Below, piece by piece: positions 3,440 through 42,762 of a DNA stretch of 64,000 bases. This DNA is from an uncultured Bacillota bacterium (lineage in GTDB: Bacteria; Bacillota_I; Bacilli_A; ML615J-28; CAG-313): assembly GCA_946611195.1 (NCBI GenBank), contig CAMODB010000002.1, forward strand, positions 16,301-80,300, read 5' to 3'. The notes below the pieces were generated by a model, which was given only the letters and a program-made list of their open reading frames with translations, was not told the origin of the DNA and did not search any database. The position numbers and the translations under genes are program-made. Within the stretch, counting starts at the first letter, position 1; the number at the start of each line of letters is the position of its first letter.

Positions 3440-3979
3440 TTAATCTTCCTTTCTTTTAGGCGCATAACGCACATAATTCTTTTTAAAATATATAACGATA
3501 GGACTAAGAGCCATCTTTCCTATTTCATCTTCCGCTACGGGAACATGACCATCAACAAATTTTAAATAAGTAGGTAATCTTCTTAAGAAATCATAAGTCA
3601 TTTGACAAAAAGTAGGTTCAATCACTTTCAACATTTCGTCCATCTTTTTATCAGAAAGCACTGATAATTTAACAAATAAAGGAATCTTATTTAAAATATC
3701 TTCATAAATGGTCATTGATTCAATATTCTTAATATTGGTTCCTAATATATAATTAATAAAATCAAATTCAATATTTTGTAATTTTTGATCAGCGACCATT
3801 ATTTTAATAAGTAAAGCTTCTAAATATTGGTTTAAACCTTTAATTAATTCAGCTTTACTAAAATCAATTTTGTCTTTGGCCAAATCATACATCATATTTA
3901 AATTATCAAGATATTTTAAATATAAATTATTACCTAATTGATACATTTCTGGATAATTATCACGTATATTTTTTTCCAT
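3440..3979 (-). CDS. Hypothetical protein, TerB-like helical domain (paralogue A)
   Basis: 179 aa. Contains LLIKIMVADQKLQNIEFDFINYI and LNKIPLF. Its stop TAA abuts the ATG of paralogue B (TAAATG). Confidence 0.5.
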   Translation of the reverse strand: MEKNIRDNYPEMYQLGNNLYLKYLDNLNMMYDLAKDKIDFSKAELIKGLNQYLEALLIKIMVADQKLQNIEFDFINYILGTNIKNIESMTIYEDILNKIPLFVKLSVLSDKKMDEMLKVIEPTFCQMTYDFLRRLPTYLKFVDGHVPVAEDEIGKMALSPIVIYFKKNYVRYAPKRKED

Positions 3980-3995
3980 CTCACACCTCTAGTTT

Positions 3996-5251: not shown

Positions 5252-5794
5252 CTACCATGACCTTTTCCGGTTTCTTTCTCTTTTGATTTTATATAAAATA
5301 CGCTGTTTTGTATTAGATATCGTTCGTGATGATTGATTTAAAACAATAGAAATAGTCTTGACATTTATTTTCTTTATATAATAAAGATAATAAACATCCC
5401 GCTCTAAAGGTGAAAAATCATAACAATCTTCCGCAAGTTGTAATGTTTTATCTTCTTCATTATTATCAATTAAATTTTCATAATAATCATCATCAACTAC
5501 AATCATCTTTCTGTCTTTTCTAAGTAAGGTGATAAATCGACGCTTAATCAGCATATCTAAAAAATTAGTAAAAGACATTTGACTATCCGTATCATAAATC
5601 TTAATGGCTTCTTCGATCATTAACAAGCCTTCTTGTAAATAATCATCATATAAAGATTTAGGTACATTAAGTAATTTCATTCGCGAACGAACTAATATTG
5701 TATATTTTTCTATCAAAATGTTTTTCCCCTCTTGATTATTTTGTCTTGCTAAATACAATAGCTCATAATCATTATATTTAAACAAATCCCCCAC
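5252..5794 (-). CDS. sigH: SigH-like RNA polymerase sigma factor (sigma-70 family)
   Basis: 180 aa with region-2-like and region-4 HTH (KTISIVLNQSSRTISNTKQRI) segments. Sits between rlmB and rpmG-secE-nusG, the position of sigH in Bacillus. Confidence 0.7.
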   Translation of the reverse strand: MGDLFKYNDYELLYLARQNNQEGKNILIEKYTILVRSRMKLLNVPKSLYDDYLQEGLLMIEEAIKIYDTDSQMSFTNFLDMLIKRRFITLLRKDRKMIVVDDDYYENLIDNNEEDKTLQLAEDCYDFSPLERDVYYLYYIKKINVKTISIVLNQSSRTISNTKQRILYKIKRERNRKRSW

Positions 5795-5800
5795 TAAATT

Positions 5801-6502
5801 TTAACCCCTCTTTCTTAATATTTCAAAAAAGATAATTGAACAAGATACGCTGGCGTTAAGTGAATCAACATGACCAACCATAGGTATCTTAATTAAAGTA
5901 TCACAATTATCTTTGACAAGACGGCTTATCCCTTTACCTTCATTGCCGACCACAATTGCGACTTTACCAGAATAATCATAATCAGTATAACTAACACTAC
6001 CAGCCATATCAAGACCAGCAATCCAAAATCCATGTTTTTTTAATTTTTCCATTGTTTGAACAAGATTTGTTACTTGAAAACAAGGAACATGTTCAATAGC
6101 TCCTGTCGATACTTTCGCAACCGTATCATTTAAAGAAACACTACGATTCTTAGGAATAATAATTCCATCAATACCAGCCGCATCCGCACTTCTTAAGATA
6201 GCTCCTAAATTATGAGGATCTTCTAAATTATCAAGAATAGCGAGGCTACAAACAGCTAAATTCTTCTTTAAAAATTCATCTAAGTCTTGATATTGATAAT
6301 CGATTATTTCACAGATAAATCCTTGATGATTACCATTTGCGATTTTATCCATCTCTTTTAAAGTCTTAATTTCGATATTTAATTTTAAAGATGGAAAATT
6401 CTTTTTTACGATTTCTATTGTGTTAGTAGTTAAATATAATTTATTGATTTTTCTTTTCACTCGAAGTGCTTCGAGAACGGTATTTTTCCCATAAATTATC
6501 AT
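5801..6502 (-). CDS. rlmB: 23S rRNA 2'-O-ribose methyltransferase, SpoU/TrmH family (RlmB/YacO-like)
   Basis: MIIYGKNTVLEAL... with the SpoU motifs GNEGKGIS and SLNASVS. Start chosen at ATG 6502, preceded by GGAGAAG. The track ORF runs to 6529. Confidence 0.85.
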   Translation of the reverse strand: MIIYGKNTVLEALRVKRKINKLYLTTNTIEIVKKNFPSLKLNIEIKTLKEMDKIANGNHQGFICEIIDYQYQDLDEFLKKNLAVCSLAILDNLEDPHNLGAILRSADAAGIDGIIIPKNRSVSLNDTVAKVSTGAIEHVPCFQVTNLVQTMEKLKKHGFWIAGLDMAGSVSYTDYDYSGKVAIVVGNEGKGISRLVKDNCDTLIKIPMVGHVDSLNASVSCSIIFFEILRKRG

Positions 6503-6882: not shown

Positions 6883-8241
6883 TTATAATTTAATACCTAA
6901 TTCAGTAATCTTATTTCTTAATTCATCAGCTTTCACAAAATCTTTTTCTTTACGGCTCTTTTGCCATTCTAAAACAAGTTCTAATTCTGATTTTGTTAAA
7001 GGTTTAACATCTACTTTAAGACCTAAAATATATAACATATCCGTAAATGTTTTGAATTCATCTTGATATGTTTTAAGTTCAACATCATTCTTTCTTAAAT
7101 CAACATTGATTTGTTTCATTAAACTATATAAGTGAGTAATCGCTGTACTAGTATTAAAATCATAAGCCATTTCTTTTAAGAAATCATCCATAATTGGTAA
7201 TACTTCACCACTTAAATCTTGATTAGGATTATTTAATTCAATTTTACGTTCTAAGGAAATATATAATTTTTCAATTTTATTCCATTCCCCACTCATTTGT
7301 TCCATCAAGTCATCTTGATAACTAATAACTTGACGATAATGATTTGATAAAATTGCCATTCTTAAAACCATTGGTGGATATTGTTCAATAATATCTTTAA
7401 CTAAGATAACATTGCCTAAAGATTTACTCATCTTTTCGCCTCTTAAATCAAGACGCGCATTATGAATCCAATAATGAGCTAAATAATCTTTATATAAAGA
7501 ATAATTTTGCGCTATTTCATTTTCATGATGTGGGAATCTTAAATCAGTTCCACCACCATGAATATCAATTGAGCCATTAAATATTTTATGAATCATAACT
7601 ACACATTCTGTATGCCAACCAGGGCGACCATCACCAAAACGACTTGGCCATTTTTTACCAGTATCTTTCGTCTTTTTCCATAAAGTAAAATCTCTTGGAT
7701 CTTTTTTACCACTATTAATTTCAATACGAGAACCAACTTCTAATTCATCAAGCTTTTGATTACTTAAAATACCATAAGTCGGATTACTATTTACATCATA
7801 ATAAACATCATCACCAGAAACATAAGCACTATTATTATCAACTAATCTTTGAATAAAATCAACAATGCCTTCGATATTTTCCGTAACTCTTGGACGAATA
7901 ACATCCATTTCACAGCCTAATTTTTCCACAACATCAAGATAAGCCTTAATATATTTATTAGCAATTTCTTCTTCACTAAGACCTTCTTTTAAAGCGGCTT
8001 TGATGATTTTATCATCAATATCAGTAAAATTAGAAGCATATACTACTTTATAACCAACATATTTTAAGAAACGACGAACAGTATCAAAAAAGATTACCGG
8101 ACGGGCATTACCAATATGAATATTATCATAAACAGTAGGTCCACAAACATACATATCGACTTCATCTTTTTTGATTGTCTTAAAATCTTCAATAGTTCCC
8201 GTTAATGAATTATAAACTTTAATTGTATTACGATCAAACAT
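6883..8241 (-). CDS. cysS: Cysteine--tRNA ligase
   Basis: 452 aa with class I motifs HIGNARP and KMSKSLGN. Confidence 0.97.
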   Translation of the reverse strand: MFDRNTIKVYNSLTGTIEDFKTIKKDEVDMYVCGPTVYDNIHIGNARPVIFFDTVRRFLKYVGYKVVYASNFTDIDDKIIKAALKEGLSEEEIANKYIKAYLDVVEKLGCEMDVIRPRVTENIEGIVDFIQRLVDNNSAYVSGDDVYYDVNSNPTYGILSNQKLDELEVGSRIEINSGKKDPRDFTLWKKTKDTGKKWPSRFGDGRPGWHTECVVMIHKIFNGSIDIHGGGTDLRFPHHENEIAQNYSLYKDYLAHYWIHNARLDLRGEKMSKSLGNVILVKDIIEQYPPMVLRMAILSNHYRQVISYQDDLMEQMSGEWNKIEKLYISLERKIELNNPNQDLSGEVLPIMDDFLKEMAYDFNTSTAITHLYSLMKQINVDLRKNDVELKTYQDEFKTFTDMLYILGLKVDVKPLTKSELELVLEWQKSRKEKDFVKADELRNKITELGIKL

Positions 8242-8260
8242 CTAATACCTCCCATAATAA

Positions 8261-8296
8261 TTTAATAAAAGGAGTCGATTGTTCATCAACTCCTTA
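8261..8296 (-). terminator. Rho-independent terminator after rplM-rpsI
   Basis: Minus strand AAGGAGT-TGATGAACAATCG-ACTCCTT followed by TTTATTAAA. Confidence 0.55.
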
Positions 8297-8351
8297 TTTT
8301 TAGTTTGCGGATAGTTTATTAATTTTGGAAATAAACCAAAATATAAATAAA

Positions 8352-8744
8352 TTAACGCTTTGAGAATTGTGGTGAACGACGAGCTTTCTTAAGACCGTAT
8401 TTCTTACGTTCAACAACACGAGAATCACGAGTAAGTAATCCCGCTTTCTTTAGTCTTCCACGATACTCAGGATTAACTAATAATAATGCACGAGCCATAC
8501 CTAAACGGATAGCACCAGCTTGACCTGTCATACCACCACCATAGACATTAACGATAACATCATATTGACTGCCAGTTTCAGTAAGTGTTAAAGGTTGAAG
8601 AATGTCTAAACGAGTAGCTGCAGAAGGGAAATATTCAACAAAGTTACGATCATTTACAACAAATTGTCCATTTCCTGGAATTAATCTAACTCTTGCAACT
8701 GAACTCTTACGACGACCAGTAGCTTGATATTGAGTAAGTGCCAT
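8352..8744 (-). CDS. rpsI: 30S ribosomal protein S9
   Basis: 130 aa ending ...[12 protein letters not shown], the typical S9 C-terminus. Confidence 0.97.
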
Positions 8745-8757
8745 TAACTTTTACCTC

Positions 8758-9204
8758 CTACTTAACTTCTAAAGGAAATGCTTCTGGTTTTTGAGCAGCG
8801 TGTTCATGTTCAGGACCTGCATAAACATAAAGTCTTGAATACATTTGAGCACCAAGCTTACCCTTTGGTAACATTCCTTTTACCGCAAATTCAATTAATT
8901 TAGTTGGATGTTGATCCAATTGTTCTTGAGCGGTACGAGTTTTTAAGCCACCTGCATAATGAGATGCACGGTAGTATTTTTTATCTTGTAATTTATTGCC
9001 TGTTAAAGCAACTTTTTCTGCATTAACAACGATAACATAATCACCACCATCAATATTAGGTGTAAATGTTGGTTTATGTTTTCCTCTTAATACAGTAGCG
9101 ACTGCTGTTGATAAGCGGCCAAGTACTAGATCAGTAGCATCGATAACATACCATTTACGATCTGCTCTAGCTAATTCATTTGTGTTCATAAAAGTAGAAC
9201 GCAT
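8758..9204 (-). CDS. rplM: 50S ribosomal protein L13
   Basis: 148 aa with [18 protein letters not shown]...[11 protein letters not shown]. Confidence 0.97.
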
Positions 9205-9285
9205 AATTTAATTTCCTCCATTTTTTCTTCTAATTGAAGGGCATTTTGTGGGTTTAAAGTCTCAACGACTAATGTATCGTAGATA

Positions 9286-9314
9286 TTATACACTAATTAG
9301 CCAAAAAAGTCAAA
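9286..9314 (-). promoter_or_regulatory. Sigma-A promoter of rplM-rpsI
   Basis: Minus strand TTGACT (9314-9309), 17 nt, TATAAT (9291-9286). About 75 nt of leader follows. Confidence 0.65.
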
Positions 9315-9390
9315 TTATTCACTTAATAATTTTAATAATGTTTTTGATAGTTCTATTCATTAATAAATATAACAAAATAAAGAATATCTA

Positions 9391-9433
9391 ATTATAAAAA
9401 GACTAAGTTCTTTTAAATTTAGAACTCAGTCTT
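9391..9433 (-). terminator. Rho-independent terminator after the small membrane protein gene
   Basis: Minus strand AAGACTGAGTTCT-AAATTTAA-AGAACTTAGTCTT followed by TTTTATAATT. Confidence 0.7.
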
Positions 9434-9439
9434 CTCTTT

Positions 9440-9775
9440 TTATTCTTTTATTTCTTCTTTTGAATTTTTAAGATATTGTCTTAATTTATCAGACGCAAGA
9501 ATCGAAGCTAAACCTTGAATGATCCCCGCAATCGAAAAGATCATCGCTAAAATTGATAATACAACAGGAATCGGTTTTAATTTTTTATAAATTAAAAACA
9601 TTAATAAGGTATTAACTCCTATTTGCAAAACCCCTGTTACAATTAAGACTATCATATAATTTAAATCAAAGAATTTCCAAACAAAATAGCCAATGATACC
9701 TATTAAGATAACTACAAGGCATAGACCATAAACCACGTAAAATAGGCTTTTATAAGCTTTAAATGAATTATTCAA
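9440..9775 (-). CDS. Small hypothetical membrane protein (3 predicted TM helices)
   Basis: 111-aa hydrophobic ORF; no recognisable family. Confidence 0.5.
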   Translation of the reverse strand: MNNSFKAYKSLFYVVYGLCLVVILIGIIGYFVWKFFDLNYMIVLIVTGVLQIGVNTLLMFLIYKKLKPIPVVLSILAMIFSIAGIIQGLASILASDKLRQYLKNSKEEIKE

Positions 9776-23119: not shown

Positions 23120-24142
23120 TTATTTAATAAACATTGCGTCACCAAAACTAAAGAAACGATACCTTTCTTTAACTGCTTCTTCATAGGCATGCATAATATG
23201 ATTCTTTCCTGCTAAGCTTGATACAAGCATAATTAAGGTTGATTTTGGTAAATGGAAATTAGTAATTAAACCCTTAACAATTTTCCATTCATAACCTGGA
23301 TAAATAAAAATATTAGTATCTTCCACACATTCTTTAAAAGTACCATATTTTGTATAAATACTTTCTAATGTTCTTGTTGATGTTGTTCCTACCGCAATAA
23401 TTCTTTTACCATTTTTAACAGCTTCATTAAGTCGATCAGCAGTTTCTTTATTCATATGATATTTCTCTGTATGCATATGATGTTCTTCAACTGTATCAAC
23501 CTGAACTGGTCTAAAGGTACCTAAACCAACATTTAAAGTAACATATTCAATTTGAATACCTTTTTCTTTGATTTGTGTGAGTAATTCTTTTGTAAAATGT
23601 AACCCTGCTGTAGGAGCAGCTGCGCTTCCATAATCTTTCGCATAAACAGTTTGATAACGATCATTATCTTTTAATTTTTCATGAATATATGGTGGTAGAG
23701 GCATCATGCCTATTTCTTCTAAGATTTCCAGAAGAATTCCTTCATAATTCATTTTAAAAAGACGAATTCCTTCTTCTTTTTCTTCAACACAAGTAGCACT
23801 TAATTTATCACTAAATTTAATAACTGTACCTACTTTTACTCTTCGAGCAGGTTTTGTTAAAGCTTCCCAGACATCATTACCTTTGTCTTTAAGTAGTAAT
23901 ACTTCAATTTTCGCATCCGTATCGATTTTTTTACCATATAATCTTGATGGTATTACTTTTGTATCATTGAGTACTAAAACATCATTAGGTGTTAAATAAT
24001 TGATAATATTTCTAAATGTTTCATGTTTAATACTACCATCATTCTTATCTAAGATTAATAATCTTGAACTAGTTCGATCAGCTAAAGGGGTTTGGGCTAT
24101 TAATTCTTCTGGTAAATAATAATCAAATTCATCTACTTTCAA
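23120..24142 (-). CDS. queA: S-adenosylmethionine:tRNA ribosyltransferase-isomerase
   Basis: 340 aa, (M)[19 protein letters not shown]..., with a TTG start that overlaps the ruvB TGA stop (TTGA). Confidence 0.95.
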
Positions 24143-25137
24143 AATAAGCCTCCCATTTTAATACCTAAATGTTTATAGGCTTTCTCTGTTGCGGTACGAC
24201 CGCGATTAGTTCTAACAATATATCCTTCTTGAAGTAAGAATGGTTCGTTAACATCTTCTAATGTTACACTTTCTTCTGATATTGTAGCTGCTAAAGCTTC
24301 TAAGCCAACGGGACCACCATGAAATCTTTCAATTAAACATTCTAAATATTTTCTATCAGTTGTATCAAGACCAGCTTGATCAATATTTAATTTTTCTAAT
24401 GCGTAATCAGTTATCTTTTTAGTAATTATTTTCGAACCATCGTATTGCGCAAAATCTCTAATTCTTCTAAATAAGCGGTTTGCAATTCTTGGTGTACCAC
24501 GACTACGTGATGCAAGTTCTAAAGTAGCTTCATCATCAATTTCAAAACCTAATATTTTTGATGTTCTCTTAATAATACTAGATAATTCTTCTTTATTATA
24601 ATAATGAAGAGCATGAATAATACCAAAACGATCCCGCATTGGTGCTGTTAAATCACCAAATCTCGTTGTAGCACCTACTAAAGTGAAAGGAGGAAGCGTC
24701 ATTCGCAATGATGAAGCACCGGTATCTTTTCCCATAACAATATCAATAACATAATCTTCCATTGCGGAATACAACATTTCTTCCATTACTTTTGGTAAAC
24801 GATGTATTTCATCAATAAAAAGGATATCACCTGGTTCAAGTTCCATAAGAATAGAAGCTAAATCTCCAGGTCGAGATAAAGCTGGTCCCGTTGTTACTTT
24901 AATACCGGTTCCCATTTCGTTGGCGATAATATGGGATAAAGTCGTTTTACCAAGTCCTGGAGGACCAAATAAAAGAACATGATCAAGTGGTTCTTGACGC
25001 ATTTTAGCAGTGGTAATATAAACATTCAACATTTCTTTGATTTCTTCTTGACCAACATATTCTGTTAATCTTTTCGGACGAAGAGTAGCTTCTTCTTCAT
25101 CTCCAGGAATCATCTTTTGATCGGTTATATTTTCCAT
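24139..25137 (-). CDS. ruvB: Holliday junction branch migration ATPase RuvB
   Basis: Walker [10 protein letters not shown] and Walker B FIDEIH. Start set at ATG 25137 (MENITDQK), with AAGGAG 7 nt upstream; the track start 25170 is a TTG. Stop is TGA, followed by AAG TAG. Confidence 0.95.
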
Positions 25138-25775: not shown

Positions 25776-25815
25776 AAGGAGACTTCTAGAAACGGAAGCC
25801 TCCTTTATTTTTTCC
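25776..25815 (+). terminator. Rho-independent terminator of ruvA, embedded in the 3' end of convergent ffh
   Basis: Plus strand AAGGAGaCTTC-TAGAAACG-GAAGcCTCCTT followed by TATTTTTTCC. Confidence 0.55.
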
Positions 25816-27189
25816 TTTACCTTTCTTTGGCTTACCAGCTCTAATTGGCATATTACCATTACGAGCTGCTTTTTGCATATCTTCTTCACTCATGCCGGCC
25901 ATAGCTATCATTTGTTTTTTCATATCTTCAAAACGTTTTGTTAAATTATTAATTTCCTGATATGGACGTCCTGATCCTTTCGCAATCCGCATCTTTCTCG
26001 AATGTGATGTTGCAACTTCATCAGGATGTTTTCTTTCATATTTAGTCATTGAACTAATAGCTACTTCAATATAAGTAAATTGTTTTTCATCAATTTCCAT
26101 ATTTCTGATTTGACTACCAATACCGGGAATCATACCAAGTAAGCCTTTTAATGAACCCATTCTCTTAATCATCTTAATTTGATCTAAGAAATCATCATAA
26201 GTAAAGATTCCTTTTTGGAGTCTTTCATTTAATTTCATTGCGTCAGTTTCATCAATATTTTCCGTAGCTTTTTCAATTAAGCCTAAAACATCACCCATAC
26301 CAAGAATTCTTTTTGCCATTCTTTCGGGATGGAAGACTTCTAATTGATCTAATTTTTCTCCGACACCGGTAAATTTAATCGGAATGTGGGTTAAATAACG
26401 AATTGATAAAGCAGCACCACCACGGGTATCTGAATCAAGTTTAGTTAATAAACAACCAGTCACACCTAATTTTTCATGAAAGGTAGATGCTACATTAACT
26501 GCATCTTGACCAGTCATCGCATCAATTGTTAACATGATTTCATCTGGATGAGCAATTTCTTTAATGTCTACTAATTCCTGCATTAAGACTTCATCAATTT
26601 GTAAACGACCAGCGGTATCAATAATGACTAAATTATTATTATGTTCTTTCGCATATTCTAAACCTTTTTTAACAATAACTTGTGGTTTAGCCATAATGCC
26701 CATTTCAAAAACATCAATATCGAGTTGTTTACCAAGTTGAACTAATTGATTAACAGCTGCGGGTCGATAAACGTCAGCCGCAATCATTAATGGCTTCATA
26801 TTATTATATTTACGCAAGTGATTAGCTAATTTTGCTGTATGAGTAGTTTTACCACTACCTTGTAAACCACACATAAGAATAATACTAGTTCCACTCTTTT
26901 TAAGATTAATAGGACTAGCTTCTTCACCCATTAATTTAACTAATTCTTCATAAACAATTTTTATTACTTGATCACCTGGTGTTAAAGATTTCATAACTCT
27001 TTCACCAAGAGCTTGTTCTTTGATATCCGCAATAAATTCTTTAACTATTTTATAATTTACATCTGCTTCTAGTAACGCTACTCTTATTTCCCGCATTGCG
27101 GTATCAATATCATTTTCATTTAAGCGACCACGTCCTGTTAAACGACGTAAACTCATTTGAATCTTATCAGATAAAGTTTCTAAAGGCAT
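25786..27189 (-). CDS. ffh: Signal recognition particle protein Ffh
   Basis: 467 aa with GLQGSGKTT, DTAGR, and a Met-rich M domain. Confidence 0.97.
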   Translation of the reverse strand: MPLETLSDKIQMSLRRLTGRGRLNENDIDTAMREIRVALLEADVNYKIVKEFIADIKEQALGERVMKSLTPGDQVIKIVYEELVKLMGEEASPINLKKSGTSIILMCGLQGSGKTTHTAKLANHLRKYNNMKPLMIAADVYRPAAVNQLVQLGKQLDIDVFEMGIMAKPQVIVKKGLEYAKEHNNNLVIIDTAGRLQIDEVLMQELVDIKEIAHPDEIMLTIDAMTGQDAVNVASTFHEKLGVTGCLLTKLDSDTRGGAALSIRYLTHIPIKFTGVGEKLDQLEVFHPERMAKRILGMGDVLGLIEKATENIDETDAMKLNERLQKGIFTYDDFLDQIKMIKRMGSLKGLLGMIPGIGSQIRNMEIDEKQFTYIEVAISSMTKYERKHPDEVATSHSRKMRIAKGSGRPYQEINNLTKRFEDMKKQMIAMAGMSEEDMQKAARNGNMPIRAGKPKKGKGKNKGGFRF

Positions 27190-27193
27190 CTTA

Positions 27194-27514
27194 TTACTCC
27201 ATTTCTTCGAGTTCTTTAATCAATTCTTTTCCTTCATCATCACAATGATTTTTAAGATTTTGATAGATTTTATCTCTCTGTAAATCTTTTTGATAAAGAC
27301 CAAGTTTATTTTCAAATTCTTCAAGACTATTTATTACTTTTTTTAAGGTATCCCAAACCGCATTACGGCTAATATGTAATTCATTAGCTATTTCTGCTAA
27401 GCTATAATCTTCATTATAATAATATATAAATAAATCTTGTTGTTTAGGGGTTAAAAGCTCACTATAATAAGCAAACAAGCAAGAATAGTAAGCCTTTTTT
27501 TCAATATCATTCAT
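27194..27514 (-). CDS. ylxM: YlxM/p13-like putative DNA-binding protein
   Basis: HTH segment YSLAEIANELHISRNAVWDTLKK, located upstream of ffh. Start chosen at MNDIEKK (ATG 27514), giving the ATGAATGA overlap with ftsY. The track ORF starts at 27529. Confidence 0.85.
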   Translation of the reverse strand: MNDIEKKAYYSCLFAYYSELLTPKQQDLFIYYYNEDYSLAEIANELHISRNAVWDTLKKVINSLEEFENKLGLYQKDLQRDKIYQNLKNHCDDEGKELIKELEEME

Positions 27515-32385: not shown

Positions 32386-33600
32386 TTAAGCTCCTTTTAT
32401 TCCGGAAGAAGTAAATCTAAATTTAACTACACCGATAATATTATCACTAGGGATTAACCCAATCATTCTTGAATCACGACTATTATTACGGTTATCACCC
32501 ATTACAAAATAATAACCATCAGGAATAACTGTACTTGTTTTAACTTCCCCTGCTTCTTTATATTTAAAATTACCATTAAAATTATAAGAACTATAGTTTC
32601 TAAAACTTTGAATAGTTTCTTCATCAAAATAACTAGATTCATCAAATACATTTCCATTAATAGTTAAATATCCATTTTCCCATGTTAAAGTATCGCCAGG
32701 GAGGCCAATAACTCTTTTAATATAGAATTCTGGATAAATGGAAACATAATTAGGAATATTTTCCACTACATTATCTTGAATAGTAATATAAGCCACTACT
32801 ACATCACTACGATCAACATGGTCTAAATAAGAAATAAAGACTGTTTCTCCATCACTATAATTAGGTCGCATACTACTTCCATCAACACTACCTAAGGTAA
32901 AGAAGAAACAAAAACAAATAGAAGCCGCAATTGTACAAAGTGGTAATATCAATACCCAATCTAAAATATTAAATATTAACATTTTAATTTTGTATTTGAT
33001 TTTTAAGAATGCTTCTTTAAATTTCGGTACCGCATTATAAAGTACTAAGAAGATTAGACTTAAAAATGATATACCAAAACATAAATACATAATCACTGAT
33101 ACAAAAGAATTAATAGTTTTAGTTTGTATTTCTAAAGCACCACGATTAAGACTGATTACATAAATACCTATATAAATGAAAGAACAAAGAATAAAGAGAA
33201 TCATCCTAATAAAGATCTTTGTAACTAATCTTACTTCACTTATATAATAGTTTTTATCTGAATCTTCATCTTTAATATCATCATCAATTAAATCATTTTC
33301 CGACTCTTCTATTTCATTATTATCCGTTTCATTAGAAGCTTCAGATTCATTAGAGACTTCAGTCTCATCAGAAACATTTTCATCAGAAGCTTCAGTTTCG
33401 TCAGAAACATCTTCATCAGAAACTTTAGTTTCATTAGAGACTTCAGTTTCGTCAGAAACTTCAGTTTCATTAGAAACATTTTCATCAGAAACTTCAGTTT
33501 CATTAGAAACATTTTCATCAGAGACTTCAGTCTCATCAGAAACATTTTCGTTAGAAGTTTCAGTTTCTTCTGAAGTATTAGTTTCCTTTAAGTCTTGCAT
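32386..33600 (-). CDS. lepB: Signal peptidase I with a long N-terminal acidic repeat and multi-TM extension
   Basis: The C-terminal 170 aa carry SPase I boxes (DGSSMRPNY, YIKRVIGLPGD, GDNRNNSRDSR). The N-terminal ~230 aa consist of an E/S/T/N/V repeat region and three hydrophobic segments. Confidence 0.88.
   Translation of the reverse strand: MQDLKETNTSEETETSNENVSDETEVSDENVSNETEVSDENVSNETEVSDETEVSNETKVSDEDVSDETEASDENVSDETEVSNESEASNETDNNEIEESENDLIDDDIKDEDSDKNYYISEVRLVTKIFIRMILFILCSFIYIGIYVISLNRGALEIQTKTINSFVSVIMYLCFGISFLSLIFLVLYNAVPKFKEAFLKIKYKIKMLIFNILDWVLILPLCTIAASICFCFFFTLGSVDGSSMRPNYSDGETVFISYLDHVDRSDVVVAYITIQDNVVENIPNYVSIYPEFYIKRVIGLPGDTLTWENGYLTINGNVFDESSYFDEETIQSFRNYSSYNFNGNFKYKEAGEVKTSTVIPDGYYFVMGDNRNNSRDSRMIGLIPSDNIIGVVKFRFTSSGIKGA
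33330..33560 (-). repeat. In-frame coding tandem repeat inside lepB (33-bp unit built from 15/18-bp sub-repeats)
   Basis: Plus strand acttcagtttcattagaaacattttcatcagaa occurs at 33458-33490 and again, 32/33 identical, at 33491-33523. Degenerate copies flank these. The repeat encodes (ETEVSDENVSN)n. Confidence 0.9.
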
Positions 33601-36130: not shown

Positions 36131-37933
36131 TTAATAATAATAATCGATTAATTTTTTAAGTCCTTCTTCCGGATTTTTAATGGAATCTTCCTTACTCATG
36201 AAATGAGGAGTAACACTATATAGGCGATGATGTTTAATTTTACTTATGCCACAAATAATCGTAATTGGTCGAATACTATTTTCTTTAATACCAGAATAGA
36301 CTTTTCCTTGTAAGCTTTGTGAATCAAAACAACCTTCACCAGTGATTACTTCATCATAATTTTTAACTAATTCTTTAAATTGTATTTCTTTAAGAAGGAA
36401 ATTAATACCTTGATCTACTTCACTATTTAAATATGACATGATACCAAAGCCACAACCACCAGCCGCACCAGATCCTTCTTTTTCACTTAAATCTTTATCT
36501 AATGTTTGAATAGTCACATCTTTAAAATTCTTTAGATTATTTTCTAATTCTATAAAGTCTCTTTCTCTAGCTCCTTTTTGTTTAGAATAAACATAAGTGG
36601 CTCCATTAGGTCCAAGTAAAGGATTTGTTACATCTGTTAAAAGCGTAAATTTAACATTTTTAATTCTATTTAATAAATTAGTAACTTTAATATTTTTAAT
36701 TAAAGCTAATTTTTCATTATTTAATTTTTCAATTAATTCATTATTTTCGTTATAGAATTCTAATCCTAAAGCTTCTAACATTCCACTACCACCATCATTA
36801 GAAGCACTACCACCGATACCGATAAAACAATGTTCAATATCATAATTCTCTAAAGCGTAATTAATGATATAACCTAAGCCATAAGTTGATGCGGTGAAAG
36901 GATTACGTTCTTTAGTCTTCATAATACCTACTACTTCCGCAAGTTCAAAATAAGCATGTTTACTATTTTCATCATATAAGAAGCTTGCGTAAGAAGGATT
37001 TAGAAAAGCATCATAAGAAAAGGCATAAATTCGTTTTAAGGAATGCATACTAGCTTCTAAACAATCAAGAAAGCCTTCACCACCATCCGATAACGCAATA
37101 ACGCCCGTTTGATAACCTTTTTTCTCTAATTCATTAGAAATCGTTCTCCCAACTTCTAGACTTGATAAACTACCTTTAAAGGAATCAGACGCAATTAAAA
37201 TACGATGGCCTTTTTTCGTAAAGAAATCTTTTTTAAAGATCGTGGATACTCTTTTATAAACAAAATAAGTAACAACATTTACCACCAGAGCTAGTAAGGC
37301 GTTAAAAGGAATAACCGCTAAGAATAGATAATATTGATAAAAATTATCTTTATTAATATTACTATATAATGGTTTTAACATATTTACTAATGGTTCAAAT
37401 TCTCCATTAAAATAGAATTTAACATAGAAGGGGATATTGATATAATAATTAGTAACTACACCACCAACAATCCAGGCGACAAACGCAAAGATTAAAGAGA
37501 TTAAACCACCTTTTTTATTCTTATGATAATTATAAAATAGACTTGATGATAAAACAACCATTGCGCCTATCATTAAATCAGCTAATTCACCGACATAATT
37601 AGTATGAGTAAATGGTATTTTTAAGACAAATCTAACTACAACTACTGCTAAACCCCACCAAGGTCCTAAAACAAAACCCGCTAAAAGAATAGGGAACATT
37701 GAGAAATTAATTTCTAAGAATGATGGAAAAAAAGGAAGTGGAAATTTTAAAAAATATAAAATATAAGATAAAGCAGAAAAGATTGCTACTTTTGCAATCA
37801 TATTAATGGTATAAGTAGTTCTTCGACCATGCTTTTCATTTCTTTCTTTTTTTCTCTTTTCGTTTATTAAGGTATAAGTTACTACATACATAACAAATAA
37901 AGTAATAATGATACCTAAATATAAATAATCCAT
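36131..37933 (-). CDS. Fusion protein: RibU-type ECF riboflavin-binding S component (N-terminal) plus glycerate kinase family domain (C-terminal)
   Basis: 600 aa. Residues ~40-235 match RibU (FLKFPLPFFPSFLEINFSMFPILLAGFVLGPWWG). Residues ~240-600 carry glycerate kinase family motifs (ASDSFKGSLS, LSDGGEGF, IGIGGSASNDGGSGM, EGSGAAGG, VITGEGCFDSQS). The frame is continuous and an FMN riboswitch lies immediately upstream. Confidence 0.8.
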   Translation of the reverse strand: MDYLYLGIIITLFVMYVVTYTLINEKRKKERNEKHGRRTTYTINMIAKVAIFSALSYILYFLKFPLPFFPSFLEINFSMFPILLAGFVLGPWWGLAVVVVRFVLKIPFTHTNYVGELADLMIGAMVVLSSSLFYNYHKNKKGGLISLIFAFVAWIVGGVVTNYYINIPFYVKFYFNGEFEPLVNMLKPLYSNINKDNFYQYYLFLAVIPFNALLALVVNVVTYFVYKRVSTIFKKDFFTKKGHRILIASDSFKGSLSSLEVGRTISNELEKKGYQTGVIALSDGGEGFLDCLEASMHSLKRIYAFSYDAFLNPSYASFLYDENSKHAYFELAEVVGIMKTKERNPFTASTYGLGYIINYALENYDIEHCFIGIGGSASNDGGSGMLEALGLEFYNENNELIEKLNNEKLALIKNIKVTNLLNRIKNVKFTLLTDVTNPLLGPNGATYVYSKQKGARERDFIELENNLKNFKDVTIQTLDKDLSEKEGSGAAGGCGFGIMSYLNSEVDQGINFLLKEIQFKELVKNYDEVITGEGCFDSQSLQGKVYSGIKENSIRPITIICGISKIKHHRLYSVTPHFMSKEDSIKNPEEGLKKLIDYYY

Positions 37934-38169: not shown

Positions 38170-38931
38170 TTAGAATAATTTTTTAATATCGGAATATTCA
38201 TAACCTTTACTGAGAAGCTTTTGAATAATCTTATTTTTATCATTTTCTTTTTCTTTGATTTTTTCATATAAAGCTTTTAATTTATCATAATCAACTTTCT
38301 GATATTCGATATTATTCATAACATAATTAATAATGTTAGTATTATATCCTTTCATCGTAAGTTTATTATAAAGAGCTTCTTTTTGTTTATTGATAGGTTC
38401 ACCAGCCAAAGATTTTAAAGTGTTTTTGCCAATATTTAAAGCCATTTCTCTTTGACTATTTTCATCTAAATTATTTAAATATTTGTCAATTAATTCTTCA
38501 TTAATTCCTTTACTAATAAGATTATATTTAATTAATTTTGGACCGCTATTCTTTCTTATTTCTTGTTCAATATAAATTTTTGTATAGCGTTCATCATCAA
38601 TGAAATTTAATTCTTTTAATCTTTTGATAATATTATTGATGATTTTTTCTTCTGTCGTTTTGGTTAATAATTTTTCTCTAACTTCTTTTTCTGTTCGCAT
38701 TTTAAAATCAATAAATTTTAAAATAGAATCAAAGATATTTACTTCATCAACACTTTTTTTGATTTTTTTAAATTCATCTTTGGAATAGGAATTACCTTTA
38801 ATAATTCGATTATTAACAATGGCATCTTCGGTTAAAAGAAGTATTTCTTCTGAATCCGTCGTATAGACTTGATATTTCTTACCTTTTTTTTCAACTTTAG
38901 TAATCCATACTAATTCTTCATTATCATTCAT
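38170..38931 (-). CDS. recX: Recombination regulator RecX (long Bacillus YfhG-like form)
   Basis: Three-helix repeats, e.g. RTEKEVREKLL and IINNIIKRLKELNFIDDERY. Start taken at MNDNEEL (ATG 38931); several in-frame ATGs occur up to 38955. Overlaps the prfB 3' end. Confidence 0.75.
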   Translation of the reverse strand: MNDNEELVWITKVEKKGKKYQVYTTDSEEILLLTEDAIVNNRIIKGNSYSKDEFKKIKKSVDEVNIFDSILKFIDFKMRTEKEVREKLLTKTTEEKIINNIIKRLKELNFIDDERYTKIYIEQEIRKNSGPKLIKYNLISKGINEELIDKYLNNLDENSQREMALNIGKNTLKSLAGEPINKQKEALYNKLTMKGYNTNIINYVMNNIEYQKVDYDKLKALYEKIKEKENDKNKIIQKLLSKGYEYSDIKKLF

Positions 38932-40048
38932 CATCATCACCATCATCAAGGACAAAACTACCTTTTTTAAGGCATTGTAGATAAGCCATCATGAAATCCA
39001 TCAAATCCCCATCTAAAACCTCTTGTGGTTGATTAGATACAAAAGATGTACGATGATCTTTTACCATTGAATAAGGATGTAAGATATAAGAACGGATTTG
39101 ACTACCCCAACCATTTTCTGATAATTCTCCAGCTGCTTCTTTCTTTTTTAAAGCTAATTCATTTAATTCTTTTTGATATAAACGGGCTTTTAAGATTTGC
39201 ATCGCTTTTTCCCGATTTTGAATTTGACTTCTTTGATTCTGACAACAAACGACAATTTCCGTCGGTAGATGGGTTAAACGAACTGCTGAATCTGTTTTAT
39301 TAATATGTTGACCACCAGCACCACTAGAACGATAAGTATCAATTCGTAAATCTTCATCCTTTATTTCAATATTGATATCTTCATTGACATCTGGCGTAAC
39401 AGTACAAGCTACAAAAGAAGTATGACGACGAGCATTAGAATCAAAAGGAGAAATACGTACTAAACGGTGAACACCATTTTCACTTTTTAAATAGCCATAA
39501 GCATTCTTACCACTAATTTCAAAAGTAACACTTTTGATTCCCGCATCAAGAGCTTCTTCATAATTAATAATATCAAATTTAAAATTATTTCTTTCCGCAA
39601 ATCTCTTATACATTCTAAATAACATTAAACCCCAGTCTTGTGATTCTGTTCCCCCAGCTCCAGGATGAAGTTCCATAATGGCATTTTCATTATCAAATTC
39701 ATCATTTAATAATTGTTCTGTTTCAAAATGTTTTAAGGAATAATCCAACTTATTAACAGTATCATCACAATTTTCATAATAACTATCTTCATTTAACATA
39801 ATTATTAATTCAATATCATCTAGACCTTTTTTTAATTCACTTAAGCCTTTTAAATTATCTTTTAATTTGTTACAACTATTAATTATTTTACTAGCTGCTC
39901 TTTGATCAGTTCAAAAATCATCCTCACTCATTTTTTGTTCATATTCAGCTATTTTATCTAAGCTTTCTTCAACATGAATGACATCTTCTAATTCTTTAAT
40001 TCTTTTTTGATAATCATTATATCTTTTTAATACTTCTGCTTTTTCCAT
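38924..40048 (-). CDS. prfB: Peptide chain release factor 2, interrupted by a single in-frame TGA at codon 46 (39911-39913); no +1 frameshift site
   Basis: ATG 40048 gives MEKAEVLKRYNDYQKRIKELEDVIHVEESLDKIAEYEQKMSEDDF-TGA-TDQRAASKIINS..., which continues in the same frame into the track ORF (HPGAGGTESQDW, RISPFD = SPF motif, SGAGGQHINKT = GGQ). Total 375 codons. The gene ends TGA TAA. Confidence 0.85.
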
Positions 40049-40063
40049 TTTATTCTTCCTTTT

Positions 40064-40091
40064 TTTAAAGAAAAACACCTAAAAAGGTGTT
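40064..40091 (-). terminator. Short hairpin plus U-run between secA and prfB (weak terminator or attenuator)
   Basis: Minus strand AACACCT-TTTT-AGGTGTT followed by TTTCTTTAAAAAAA. The stem overlaps the secA stop codon. Confidence 0.4.
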
Positions 40092-42762
40092 AATTCTTAC
40101 CATGACATTTTTTATATTTTAAGCCAGATCCGCATGGGCATGGATCATTAGGGCCAATCTTTTTTTCTTTTTTCACAATTGGTTTCTTCTTTGTGTCTTC
40201 CATTGAACCACCAGAAGCTACTAAATTTTTCGCAATCTTTTCCCTTGCCCCCATACTGATTGGAATAGAACGTTGATTTAATACCGCAACAGTTTCATTT
40301 TCAATTGATTCAATCATTCTTGAGAACATTTCAAAACCAATTTCTTGATATTGACGTAATGGATTTTGTTGACCATATGATTGTAATGATACACTTTGTC
40401 TTAAAGTAGACATTTGATCGATATGTTCCATCCAATGTTTATCAACAACGGATAATAAAATTCGTTTTAAGAATTCTTTATAATTTTCTGGATCAGCATC
40501 CGCTTTCTTATGTTCCAAATTCTTATGGAAGATATTTGTGATAAATTCAATCGTTTCGTTTAAATTCTTTCCTTCGATATCATCAATTGATAACGCATTA
40601 ATGATTGCTTTTTGATTTTCTGTTTCTTTAATACGACGGGCAGTAAATGATTCACGACAAGCAAGGTTAGTACAAGTTGTTGGTACACCTTCATGAACTC
40701 TTTGAACCTTACCACATTTAGGACAGCTTACCATAATATAATCTTGGTCAAAATATTTAACCACGAATTCTTTCATGAAACGAATCTTATCGATTTCATT
40801 AGGATTAGACACATCCACAAATTTTGATACTTCACGACTAGCGACATTATCAATCATCTTAAGAATAGTTGGTTCAATATCATCAAGGAATAAGATATCA
40901 TTTCTTTGACCATAAATAACTTCTCTTTGTTTTCTTAAGACTTCATCATATTCAACAACACTCTTACGACGATCGTAGTTTTGTCCTTCAATTTTCTTTT
41001 GGGCACTTTCTACGACACTAGAGAAACCTTTATATTCAATTGGTTTCGTTTCTCCCGATTCATCTTTACCACCTGATGCGAGCATCAATAATCTTTCTAG
41101 ACGTTCACCACCGAAACGAATTAATAATTCATCTTTAGTTGATAAATAGAATCGTGAATAACCAGGGTCACCTTGACGTCCACTACGACCTCTTAATTGG
41201 TTATCAATACGTCTTGATTCATGTCTTTCTGTACCTAAAACAGCTAACCCACCTAATTCTTTAACCCCAGGAGCAAGTTTAATATCGGTACCACGACCAG
41301 CCATATTGGTTGCGATAGTAACAGCACCAATTTCCCCAGCATGAGCGATAATTTCTGCTTCTCTTTGATGTTGTTTAGCATTTAATACATTATGTTTAAT
41401 ACCATATTTTTTTAGATATGATGATATTAATTCACTGGATTCAATTGAAATTGTACCAACTAGAACTGGTTGTCCTTTTTCATGACGTTCTTTAATATCT
41501 TTCGCAAGAGCTTCATATTTAGCTTTTTCCGAGAAGAAAATTAAATCAGTATCATCGATACGACGAACAGGTTCGTTAGTTGGAATTTCCACAACTAACA
41601 TATTATAGATTTCTCTAAATTCTTCTTCTTCCGTTTTTGCGGTACCAGTCATACCAGCTAATTTAGAATACATTCTAAAATAATTTTGGAAAGTAATAGT
41701 CGCTAAAGTTCTTGTTTCTTTCTTAACTTCAACATGTTCTTTTGCTTCAATAGCTTGGTGTAAACCTTCACTCCATTGACGGCCATGCATCAAACGACCA
41801 GTAAATTGGTCAACGATAACAATCTTACCATCTTGCACAACATAGTCTACTTCATTCTTCATAATATAATTAGCTCTTAAAGCATTATTAATACGATGTA
41901 ATAATTCTACGTTAGAAATATCATATAGATTATTAATATGGAAATATTCTTCAGCTTTACTAATACCAGCTGGCGTAAGTGAAGCATGACGATCTTTTTC
42001 ATCTACTTCATAATCTTCATCTTTAATTAATCTTTTAACAAAGTTATTAGCTTGTTCATAAAGATTTTGGGTTTCTTTTGCGCCACCACTAATGATTAAA
42101 GGTGTTCTTGCTTCATCAATTAGGATGGAATCGACTTCATCGACAATCGCAAAATTCAATTCTCTTCTTTGAACCATATCTTCTTTATAAACAACCATAT
42201 GGTCTCTTAGATAATCAAAACCTAATTCATTATTGGTTGAATAAGTGATATCACAAGCATATTGAGCTCTCTTTTCTTCACTAGTCATATCTTTTAAATT
42301 TAAACCAACTGTTAAACCTAAAAATTTATGAATTTCACCCATTTCGCTCGCATCACGACCAGCTAGGTATTCATTGACTGTTACGATATGAACTCCTTTA
42401 CCACTTAATGCATTTAAATAAGCAACCATAACAGAAGTTAAAGTCTTACCTTCACCAGTCTTCATTTCCGCAATATTACCATAATGCATAGCAGCTGCAC
42501 CAATAACTTGTACCTTAAATGGAGTTAAACCACTTACTCTGGTTGATGCTTCTCTTGCTACCGCAAAAGCTTCAACCAAAATATCATCTAAAGTTTCACC
42601 ATTTTTTAATCGTTCTCTAAAGATGTTTGTTTGTGCCTTTAGTTCATCATCGCTCATTGCTTTATAATAATCAGCAAGTGCAAGAACTTTATCGGCAATT
42701 TTTGTACATTTCTTTAATTCTTTATTGGCAGGATCAAATAATTTTGCTAAACCTTTTGCCAT
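40090..42762 (-). CDS. secA: Preprotein translocase ATPase SecA
   Basis: 890 aa with the DEAD motor (MKTGEGKTL, VDEVDSILIDEARTPLIISG) and the C-terminal zinc motif CPCGSGLKYKKCHG. It also has an extra internal CPKC...CTNLAC motif. Confidence 0.97.
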   Translation of the reverse strand: MAKGLAKLFDPANKELKKCTKIADKVLALADYYKAMSDDELKAQTNIFRERLKNGETLDDILVEAFAVAREASTRVSGLTPFKVQVIGAAAMHYGNIAEMKTGEGKTLTSVMVAYLNALSGKGVHIVTVNEYLAGRDASEMGEIHKFLGLTVGLNLKDMTSEEKRAQYACDITYSTNNELGFDYLRDHMVVYKEDMVQRRELNFAIVDEVDSILIDEARTPLIISGGAKETQNLYEQANNFVKRLIKDEDYEVDEKDRHASLTPAGISKAEEYFHINNLYDISNVELLHRINNALRANYIMKNEVDYVVQDGKIVIVDQFTGRLMHGRQWSEGLHQAIEAKEHVEVKKETRTLATITFQNYFRMYSKLAGMTGTAKTEEEEFREIYNMLVVEIPTNEPVRRIDDTDLIFFSEKAKYEALAKDIKERHEKGQPVLVGTISIESSELISSYLKKYGIKHNVLNAKQHQREAEIIAHAGEIGAVTIATNMAGRGTDIKLAPGVKELGGLAVLGTERHESRRIDNQLRGRSGRQGDPGYSRFYLSTKDELLIRFGGERLERLLMLASGGKDESGETKPIEYKGFSSVVESAQKKIEGQNYDRRKSVVEYDEVLRKQREVIYGQRNDILFLDDIEPTILKMIDNVASREVSKFVDVSNPNEIDKIRFMKEFVVKYFDQDYIMVSCPKCGKVQRVHEGVPTTCTNLACRESFTARRIKETENQKAIINALSIDDIEGKNLNETIEFITNIFHKNLEHKKADADPENYKEFLKRILLSVVDKHWMEHIDQMSTLRQSVSLQSYGQQNPLRQYQEIGFEMFSRMIESIENETVAVLNQRSIPISMGAREKIAKNLVASGGSMEDTKKKPIVKKEKKIGPNDPCPCGSGLKYKKCHGKN

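Follow-up and report, generated by a model that had tools for sequence, protein, structure and literature searches.

The window analysed here, a stretch of 64,000 nucleotides (nt) from an uncultured Bacillota bacterium (contig CAMODB010000002.1 of assembly GCA_946611195.1), carries a prfB gene for release factor 2 (RF2) whose reading frame is interrupted by a single TGA at the position of a conserved tryptophan. The window has a G+C content of 29% and a strong GC skew, with nearly all genes on the minus strand. Translation of prfB from the minus-strand ATG at 40048-40046 yields 45 sense codons (MEKAEVLKRYNDYQKRIKELEDVIHVEESLDKIAEYEQKMSEDDF; MEKAEV...SEDDF) and then the TGA, after which the same frame resumes with TDQRAASKI... 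and continues as an intact RF2 up to the terminator (Table 1). An earlier note on this DNA, made without database searches, had described an in-frame TGA splitting a 45-codon head from the RF2 body, and minus-strand translation confirms this arrangement. The same note placed the 291-amino-acid (aa) open reading frame (ORF) of the body in the frame of the head, which is correct, although the start of that ORF at Met84 is merely the choice of a gene caller and the frame is open from codon 47.

Read with tryptophan for the TGA, the protein matches the TIGR00020 prfB model at 482.5 bits (cutoff 370), and RF1 models return 260-266 bits, under their cutoffs. Residues 1-358 align with residues 1-362 of Bacillus subtilis RF2 (9fy1, E = 3e-117), and the protein is colinear from residue 1 with the solved B. 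subtilis RF2 structures (9fy1, 6szs), N-terminal domain included. The interrupting codon (UGA-46, or TGA-46 in the DNA) aligns with W46 of B. subtilis RF2, within ADPEFWNDQQKAQ. The remainder of the gene had been described as intact, and it is, with the motifs RISPFDS and SGAGGQH in the window and SPF and GGQ kept in all 13 members of the clade described below. The region that was said to lack the classical shift site is likewise uninterrupted across codons 20-30 and contains no CTTTGA. The gene ends in GAA TGA TAA TGA, inside the beginning of recX, the ORF downstream (38170-38955); the prfB terminator is also TGA in clade locus L001, and TAA or TAG in other clade members.

Table 1 Coordinates of the prfB gene and its features in the window
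Feature	Position	Strand	Remark
Recoded complete prfB (RF2) gene	38924..40048	minus	374 sense positions including UGA-46, plus terminal stop
Shine-Dalgarno-like AGGAAG	40055..40060	minus	6 nt upstream of prfB ATG; read from sequence, putative
45-codon head, RF2 N-terminal helix region	39914..40048	minus	separate 45-aa mini-ORF according to code-11 gene callers
TGA at codon 46, conserved RF2 Trp position	39911..39913	minus	proposed recoding and sensor codon
+4 base A after UGA-46 (context TTY UGA A)	39910	minus	
RF2 body, codons 47-374	38927..39910	minus	in frame with head
SPF motif; GGQ motif	39443..39451; 39308..39316	minus	inside RF2 body
prfB terminator TGA (38926-38924) and immediate TAA (tandem stop)	38921..38926	minus	within recX start region

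Alignment of related prfB genes, as the earlier note had proposed, revealed that TGA-46 is a property of a clade. The pattern TT[T/C] TGA A[C/G]N was read from DNA at codon 46 in 13 of 13 distinct clade sequences, and TGG was found only in sister and other lineages. These 13 sequences share 60-100% protein identity, derive from gut assemblies of goat, pig, rabbit and human origin, and include four GTDB species representatives. In a neighbour-joining tree of RF2 the TGA carriers form one clade with TGG lineages (L014, L015 and L174) as its sister, and further out lie Acholeplasma-like and Coprobacillus-like lineages in which prfB is unbroken and without a frameshift. A metagenome scan using a pattern that accepts either TGA or TGG returned 54 matches with in-frame SPF and GGQ downstream from many phyla, among which TGA was confined to the low-GC clade and the rest were all TGG. 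This distribution suggests a single origin of TGA-46 followed by its retention, with no reversion seen among the clade sequences examined. The other RF2 sequences sampled also carried TGG, except for one group with TAY, the Coprobacillus sp. CAG:698 group (L017, L025 and L026), where the FW motif of RF2 reads FY (TAT/TAC). Tryptophan at this site is therefore highly conserved but not invariant as had been claimed, and the position tolerates another aromatic residue, which bears on what could be inserted at UGA-46.

The strongest sequence conservation spans the junction DDF-UGA-[S/T]DQ. The +4 base is A in all 13 TGA carriers, and a serine codon at this place is always AGT, never TCN. One locus (L009) was left out as uninformative because it is a chimeric or fused contig without the RF2 N-terminus; its 346-aa ORF (5334-6374), in which a non-RF2 N-terminus (...CQHNCIYC...) is fused in frame to a clade RF2 body, is probably an assembly chimera.

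Database records of this gene are inconsistent. A profile search with the heads recovered 31 clusters, at 90% identity, whose mini-proteins are exactly 45 aa long; they lie on ~180 contigs and are labelled 'hypothetical protein' or, wrongly, 'CwlO-like'. The nearest database relatives of the whole protein are truncated RF2 sequences of 291-299 aa, several with a separate 45-aa gene upstream, or full-length sequences with W. In those full-length entries that were checked against DNA (P0006, P0020, and P0009/P0011, which match the L012 gene in sequence), the W proved to be this TGA translated with code 4. Across entries P0004-P0011, P0020 and P0123-P0171 the same gene is filed as a full-length W protein, as fragments of 167-318 aa, or as a 45-aa protein, and the full-length W calls are code-4 calls, mostly from short contigs. 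Pipelines thus either split prfB into a 45-aa 'hypothetical protein' and a truncated RF2 or apply code 4, and such inconsistent calls can mislead or bias genetic-code prediction and prfB presence/absence surveys of gut metagenome-assembled genomes.

We consider it probable that the prfB of this clade is a functional gene that needs UGA-46 to be decoded as sense, likeliest as tryptophan by a near-cognate tRNA-Trp that competes with RF2, giving negative feedback. The earlier proposal of a functional prfB dependent on UGA-46 read-through finds support in the conservation across the clade, in purifying selection on the body, in a constrained head, and in the use of TGA elsewhere as a stop. These lines of evidence are set out below together with the alternatives on which they bear.

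The clade uses the standard genetic code. Stop codons of the 57 non-overlapping window genes are TAA (44), TAG (7) and TGA (6), and TGA-46 of prfB is the sole internal TGA among these genes, which contain 158 TGG codons. With its recurrence at one codon in all 13 clade members, this lies far outside chance expectation. In the pooled clade loci, tryptophan is encoded by 266 TGG codons, and prfB codon 46 is the only place where a real gene has an internal TGA. The remaining tryptophan codons of prfB itself (139, 314 and 359) are TGG in all 13 genes, even though the third position of lysine, glutamate and glutamine codons is A in 88% of cases in these genes, indicating that TGA is not a free synonym here and that codon 46 is specifically different. 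TGA terminates 8 of 107 clade genes (~7%), compared with 2 of 27 in the TGG sister group. Two TGA-ending window genes have essentially the same length as their L001 orthologues ending in TAA or TAG (HAD hydrolase, 228 versus 228 aa; QueH, 205 versus 206 aa), and TGA is therefore a real stop. A code in which UGA generally means tryptophan is ruled out by the TGA terminators together with the lack of any other internal TGA in real genes. The only other candidate for an internal TGA precedes the true start of its gene: it is codon 36 in the stop-to-stop frame (25786-27330) that includes ffh.

Lineages that have adopted genetic code 4 have UGA at many tryptophan positions, lack UGA terminators and prfB, and usually encode tRNA-Trp(UCA) (PMC13462651; gTranslate preprint). 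The clade resembles such lineages (Mycoplasmatales, Hodgkinia, Zinderia, Nasuia, Stammera, and some Eggerthellaceae/Patescibacteriota) in the proposed use of UGA as tryptophan and in having low-GC, reduced, host-associated genomes, and it is also a phylogenetic neighbour of Mollicutes. It differs from them in having no widespread Trp-UGA, with none in other genes, in having UGA terminators, and in having a prfB that is both present and constrained.

Of the alternatives, the one that survives best is an arrested or incipient UGA-to-Trp code change. A dedicated decoder, either tRNA-Trp(UCA) or a tRNA-Trp(CCA) with a 4-bp anticodon stem, would then make UGA ambiguous genome-wide. The UGA of prfB would in that case be the earliest Trp-UGA to have become fixed, on the way to losing RF2, and no regulatory device. 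The Mollicutes-like Bacilli, to which the clade is related, include the Mycoplasmatales with their reassigned UGA, and TGA stop usage in the clade is low. The 4-bp anticodon-stem tRNA-Trp(CCA) found in standard-code genomes raises UGA read-through (PMC13092985). No tRNA gene within the sequenced clade loci reveals the type of tRNA-Trp: ARAGORN detected none in the window, the loci of clade and sister group, or a 9.8-kb contig extension (L175), and no tRNA-Trp was found in the rplK/rplA neighbourhood within the window. Nonetheless, we regard a code change as unlikely. Not one of the 266 other clade tryptophan codons has become TGA despite the strong A-ending bias, and TGA is used as a terminator at a rate similar to that of the TGG sister group in genes whose TAA- or TAG-ending orthologues are essentially equal in length. 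These counts tell against the onset of genome-wide reassignment that the earlier note had entertained. Furthermore, the state is stable over 13 deeply diverged lineages in which RF2 is intact and under purifying selection.

The closest case in the literature, which also counts in favour of a code change, is Ca. Providencia siddallii PSAC, a leech symbiont with in-frame UGA in 125 of 610 genes, interpreted as an ongoing transition from code 11 to code 4 (PMC10540940). During this change its prfB underwent UGG>UGA and was deemed a pseudogene under code 11, with low-level tRNA-Trp read-through proposed to provide some RF2 (PMC10540940). Both cases involve UGG>UGA inside prfB with an A-rich 3' context. 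PSAC, in contrast, is one endosymbiont genome in the midst of a code change with in-frame UGA in ~20% of its genes, whereas here the UGA is restricted to prfB in a deep gut clade that uses the standard code.

The pattern of divergence indicates that head and body evolve as one RF2 coding unit under selection. In every lineage the head is exactly 45 codons long with no stop or indel; given the base composition, 45 codons would stay open by chance with a probability of 0.023 per lineage. We used a comparison of head and body divergence in place of the ratio of nonsynonymous to synonymous substitution rates (dN/dS) of the head. The head/body ratio of amino-acid divergence is 1.9-2.1 in TGA carriers, compared with 1.9-2.25 in TGG relatives, whose head undoubtedly belongs to RF2. 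Within the RF2 body, the closest pairs display a proportion of nonsynonymous differences (pN) of 0.03-0.12 versus ~0.5 for synonymous differences (pS). Synonymous sites are saturated across the 13 lineages, yet prfB has acquired neither a frameshift nor an indel nor a second stop in any of them.

Coupling of head and body bears directly on the idea of split expression, whereby translation would stop at UGA-46 and a truncated RF2 would be produced by downstream re-initiation, leaving the head as a leader peptide or upstream ORF. Gene callers do pick downstream starts that give products of 291-299 aa. Release factors truncated for domain 1 reportedly keep peptide-release activity in vitro (Mora et al. 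in 2003). However, no start codon is conserved in codons 47-100, since Met84 occurs only in the window and L001 and the called starts differ between lineages. Codons 47-83 stay open and RF2-like, the head keeps the N-terminal sequence of RF2 and diverges relative to the body just as in TGG relatives, and conservation peaks right at the junction of head and body. We therefore judge split expression improbable, and more so than a code change.

A non-functional prfB, either a pseudogene or an RF2 in decay because its lineage can do without the factor, is a very poor fit to the same data. Pseudogenes are typically recognised by an internal stop, TGA terminators are few in the clade, and RF2 decay has been speculated for Mycoplasmatota that keep prfB (Prince, Lin & Feaga, 10.1101/2024.09.24.614795). 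Yet the reading frame is otherwise clean in all 13 lineages, SPF and GGQ are intact, and the pN and pS values of the closest pairs are those of a gene under constraint. Roughly 7% of clade genes still end in TGA, which is read by RF2 only. The very recent pseudogene suggested as an alternative in the earlier note is excluded by conservation on ~180 independent contigs.

Other kinds of recoding at codon 46, whether by selenocysteine insertion, by frameshifting (+1 or -1), by hopping or by slippage of transcription along the T-run, are harder still to credit. UGA is also the selenocysteine codon, and the TTTTTGA of the window resembles a rare poly-T slippery variant of prfB (10.1101/2024.09.24.614795). 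However, the RF2 body lies in the 0 frame, and the +1 frame of the window meets TAA after 9 codons. The codon before TGA is TTT in some lineages and TTC in three (L010-L012), which have no T-run and thus no possibility of P-site re-pairing in the +1 frame. Upstream codons vary between lineages (GAG GAT GAT, GAA GAT GGC, GCT GAT GAT, AAA GAC GAC), and no stimulator resembling a Shine-Dalgarno (SD) sequence is conserved. The 0 frame, the TTC variants and the lack of a conserved SD-like sequence together rule out a +1 frameshift on the T-run. On the 3' side of UGA-46 no conserved hairpin was found (RNAalifold consensus of -2.5 kcal/mol with 0 covarying pairs), single-sequence folds are mutually inconsistent, and the site has no Rfam match; a signal of the selenocysteine insertion sequence (SECIS) type is thus not supported. 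Finally, an error of sequencing or assembly in the window contig, for which a single-base TGG/TGA difference speaks as a prior only, can be dismissed because the 13 distinct sequences and the 31 head clusters, which share this codon, come from separate samples and hosts and from different assemblers.

The TGA-46 finding is thus real, conserved and apparently undescribed. Autoregulation of prfB in a variant form based on read-through accounts for it better than a change of code throughout the genome. The earlier note knew of no description of this arrangement, and in the literature we searched we likewise found none. UGA is terminated by RF2 only. A ribosome that arrives at UGA-46 would have two outcomes, termination by RF2 with release of a 45-aa peptide, or read-through to full-length RF2. 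The decoder would most probably be the near-cognate tRNA-Trp(CCA), which would insert tryptophan and restore the conserved F-W motif. Since RF2 is the sole reader of UGA, the partition at UGA-46 would track the concentration of RF2 and generate negative feedback, with RF2 synthesis falling when the factor is abundant and rising when it is scarce. The feedback logic would be that of the classical +1 frameshift site, achieved via another recoding event.

Known rates of UGA misreading make such a mechanism plausible. In B. subtilis, UGA is read as tryptophan at ~6%, and mutation of prfB raises this to 19-54% (Karow et al. 1998, summed up in PMC7918605). An A on the 3' side of the codon favours read-through by tRNA-Trp in Escherichia coli (Engelberg-Kulka 1981 and Kopelowitz 1992, cited in PMC10540940). 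The ~6% decoding in B. subtilis, combined with the A at +4, suggests that read-through at UGA-46 is feasible. A candidate for an enhanced decoder is the 4-bp anticodon-stem tRNA-Trp(CCA) of standard-code bacteria (PMC13092985).

The arrangement would have arisen once, in a lineage of Mollicutes-like Bacilli whose relatives have an uninterrupted prfB without a frameshift site. Our genome scan found the classical frame break before GG[L/I]FD in many Firmicutes, and prfB unbroken in the Mollicutes-like Bacilli around the clade. The classical +1 frameshift occurs in about 64% of RefSeq species (Prince, Lin & Feaga, 10.1101/2024.09.24.614795), and among 12,751 RefSeq genomes surveyed the motif was present in no Mycoplasmatota retaining prfB (10.1101/2024.09.24.614795). 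The unbroken prfB of Mollicutes-like Bacilli seen here agrees with the Mycoplasmatota of that survey (10.1101/2024.09.24.614795). Nested in a group without the ancestral autoregulation, the TGA clade appears to have regained the same logic by one TGG-to-TGA change. If little RF2 is needed, a gene that yields only small amounts of it by read-through may have been tolerated.

Going one step further, we lean, if somewhat more tentatively, toward the view that UGA-46 truly acts as a programmed sensor of read-through. This prfB would then be the first natural bacterial release-factor gene autoregulated by in-frame near-cognate decoding of its own cognate stop codon, long kept. It would also be a stable, living case of an essential gene that relies on tRNA-Trp to read UGA although the codon has not ceased to be a stop.

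Several points weigh against read-through autoregulation and must be considered alongside this evidence. The mechanism itself, from read-through and the inserted tryptophan to the decoding tRNA and the feedback, is inferred from the conservation of sequence. No stimulatory structure was found near the codon, so only the codon itself and the +4 base are left to explain efficient read-through. The local context is not distinctive either: ruvB ends with TTT TGA A as well (24139-24144 region), with a backup TAG one codon on, and context alone therefore does not make UGA-46 special. AT mutation pressure would in part be enough to keep A at the third position of the codon. Saturation of synonymous sites makes dN/dS of the head noisy and leaves the closest pairs alone as informative. 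The genome may also encode a tRNA-Trp(UCA) or 4-bp anticodon-stem tRNA-Trp, as the loci covered contain no tRNA gene, or may carry a second, uninterrupted prfB elsewhere, as the sequence covered amounts to 64-90 kb.

Of the six window genes that end in TGA, three are followed by TAA or TAG no more than one codon later, a sample too small for an excess to be claimed. These backup stops, together with the ruvB context, hint at a leaky UGA, and UGA read-through may generally be appreciable in these organisms.

Comparison with known systems helps to define what is distinctive about UGA-46. As in the classical +1 frameshift of E. coli and B. subtilis, an early in-frame UGA in prfB sets RF2 termination against a recoding event, with a short N-terminal peptide as the product of termination. 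The two sites differ in nearly every other respect. The classical body continues in the +1 frame, whereas here it stays in the 0 frame; the classical UGA stands at about codon 26, whereas here it occupies codon 46 on a tryptophan position. A CUU-U (or UUU-U) slippery codon, an SD-like stimulator 3 nt upstream of it and C at +4 characterise the classical site, and the corresponding features here are TTY (TTC in several lineages), no conserved SD-like sequence, and A at +4. The recoding event also differs, being tRNA slippage in the classical case and, as proposed, near-cognate decoding in this one.

Leaky UGA decoding by wild-type tRNA-Trp is said to have been noted by Lovett et al. in 1991. 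Such decoding in B. subtilis and E. coli is the same event as that proposed here, in which near-cognate tRNA-Trp(CCA) competes with RF2 and is favoured by impaired RF2 and by A at +4. It differs in being known from nonsense mutants and reporters, whereas UGA-46 is evolutionarily fixed in an essential gene. A more distant parallel is plant eRF1 (PMC5397192), a release factor that also tunes its own expression via read-through of a stop in its own mRNA. However, eRF1 is eukaryotic and non-homologous, the stop that is read through is the normal terminator, with protection of the mRNA from nonsense-mediated decay, and no internal stop occupies a sense position (PMC5397192).

If read-through autoregulation is the correct explanation, it has several implications for RF2 and for the evolution of the genetic code. 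The selective value would lie in the feedback and not in the frameshift itself. To our knowledge, textbooks describe RF2 autoregulation by the +1 frameshift, and lineages without the frameshift are assumed to be unregulated. Stop-codon read-through could be a fixed, essential decoding event of a bacterial core gene, with tRNA-Trp reading UGA well enough to supply an essential protein while UGA terminates other genes. This coexistence of tRNA-Trp reading UGA with UGA stops bears on how UGA-to-Trp reassignment began in Mollicutes and symbionts. The UGA-46 state would represent the intermediate postulated en route to that reassignment, possibly aided by a specialised tRNA-Trp.

Genes surrounding prfB displayed additional features. 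A terminator-like hairpin (AACACCTTTTTAGGTGTT followed by a T-run) lies on the minus strand at 40074-40091, directly after the secA stop and ~26 nt before the prfB ATG, and no obvious promoter is apparent between the hairpin and that ATG. In L001 the secA stop overlaps the prfB ATG by 1 nt, indicating that the secA-prfB junction varies within the clade. The window secA (40090-42762, minus) encodes 890 aa with an internal Cys-rich segment (VSCPKCGKVQRVHEGVPTTCTNLACRESF), which may be an inserted zinc-ribbon, besides the C-terminal CPCGSG zinc-binding tail. In L003 (3111-5752) secA is split between two ORFs (357 and 527 aa), in contrast to L001, L002 and L004, to which this locus is otherwise nearly identical.

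A 600-aa fusion of a membrane domain resembling the S-component of energy-coupling factor (ECF) transporters with a glycerate kinase domain is encoded at 36131-37933 (minus). The same fusion is present in L005 (608 aa), and L001 encodes the two parts as separate overlapping genes of 247 and 365 aa (7881-9690). A signal-peptidase-I-like protein (32386-33600, minus) carries a long acidic N-terminal extension of near-perfect repeats (SDENVSNETEVSDETEV). At the start of the window, rplK-rplA (L11 and L1; 497-1689, minus) are separated from the upstream ORFs by inserted genes for a 336-aa acetyltransferase-like protein and a 175-aa protein; upstream of rplK-rplA, the ORF at 3440-3988 (minus) is about the size of nusG, a likeness in size only.

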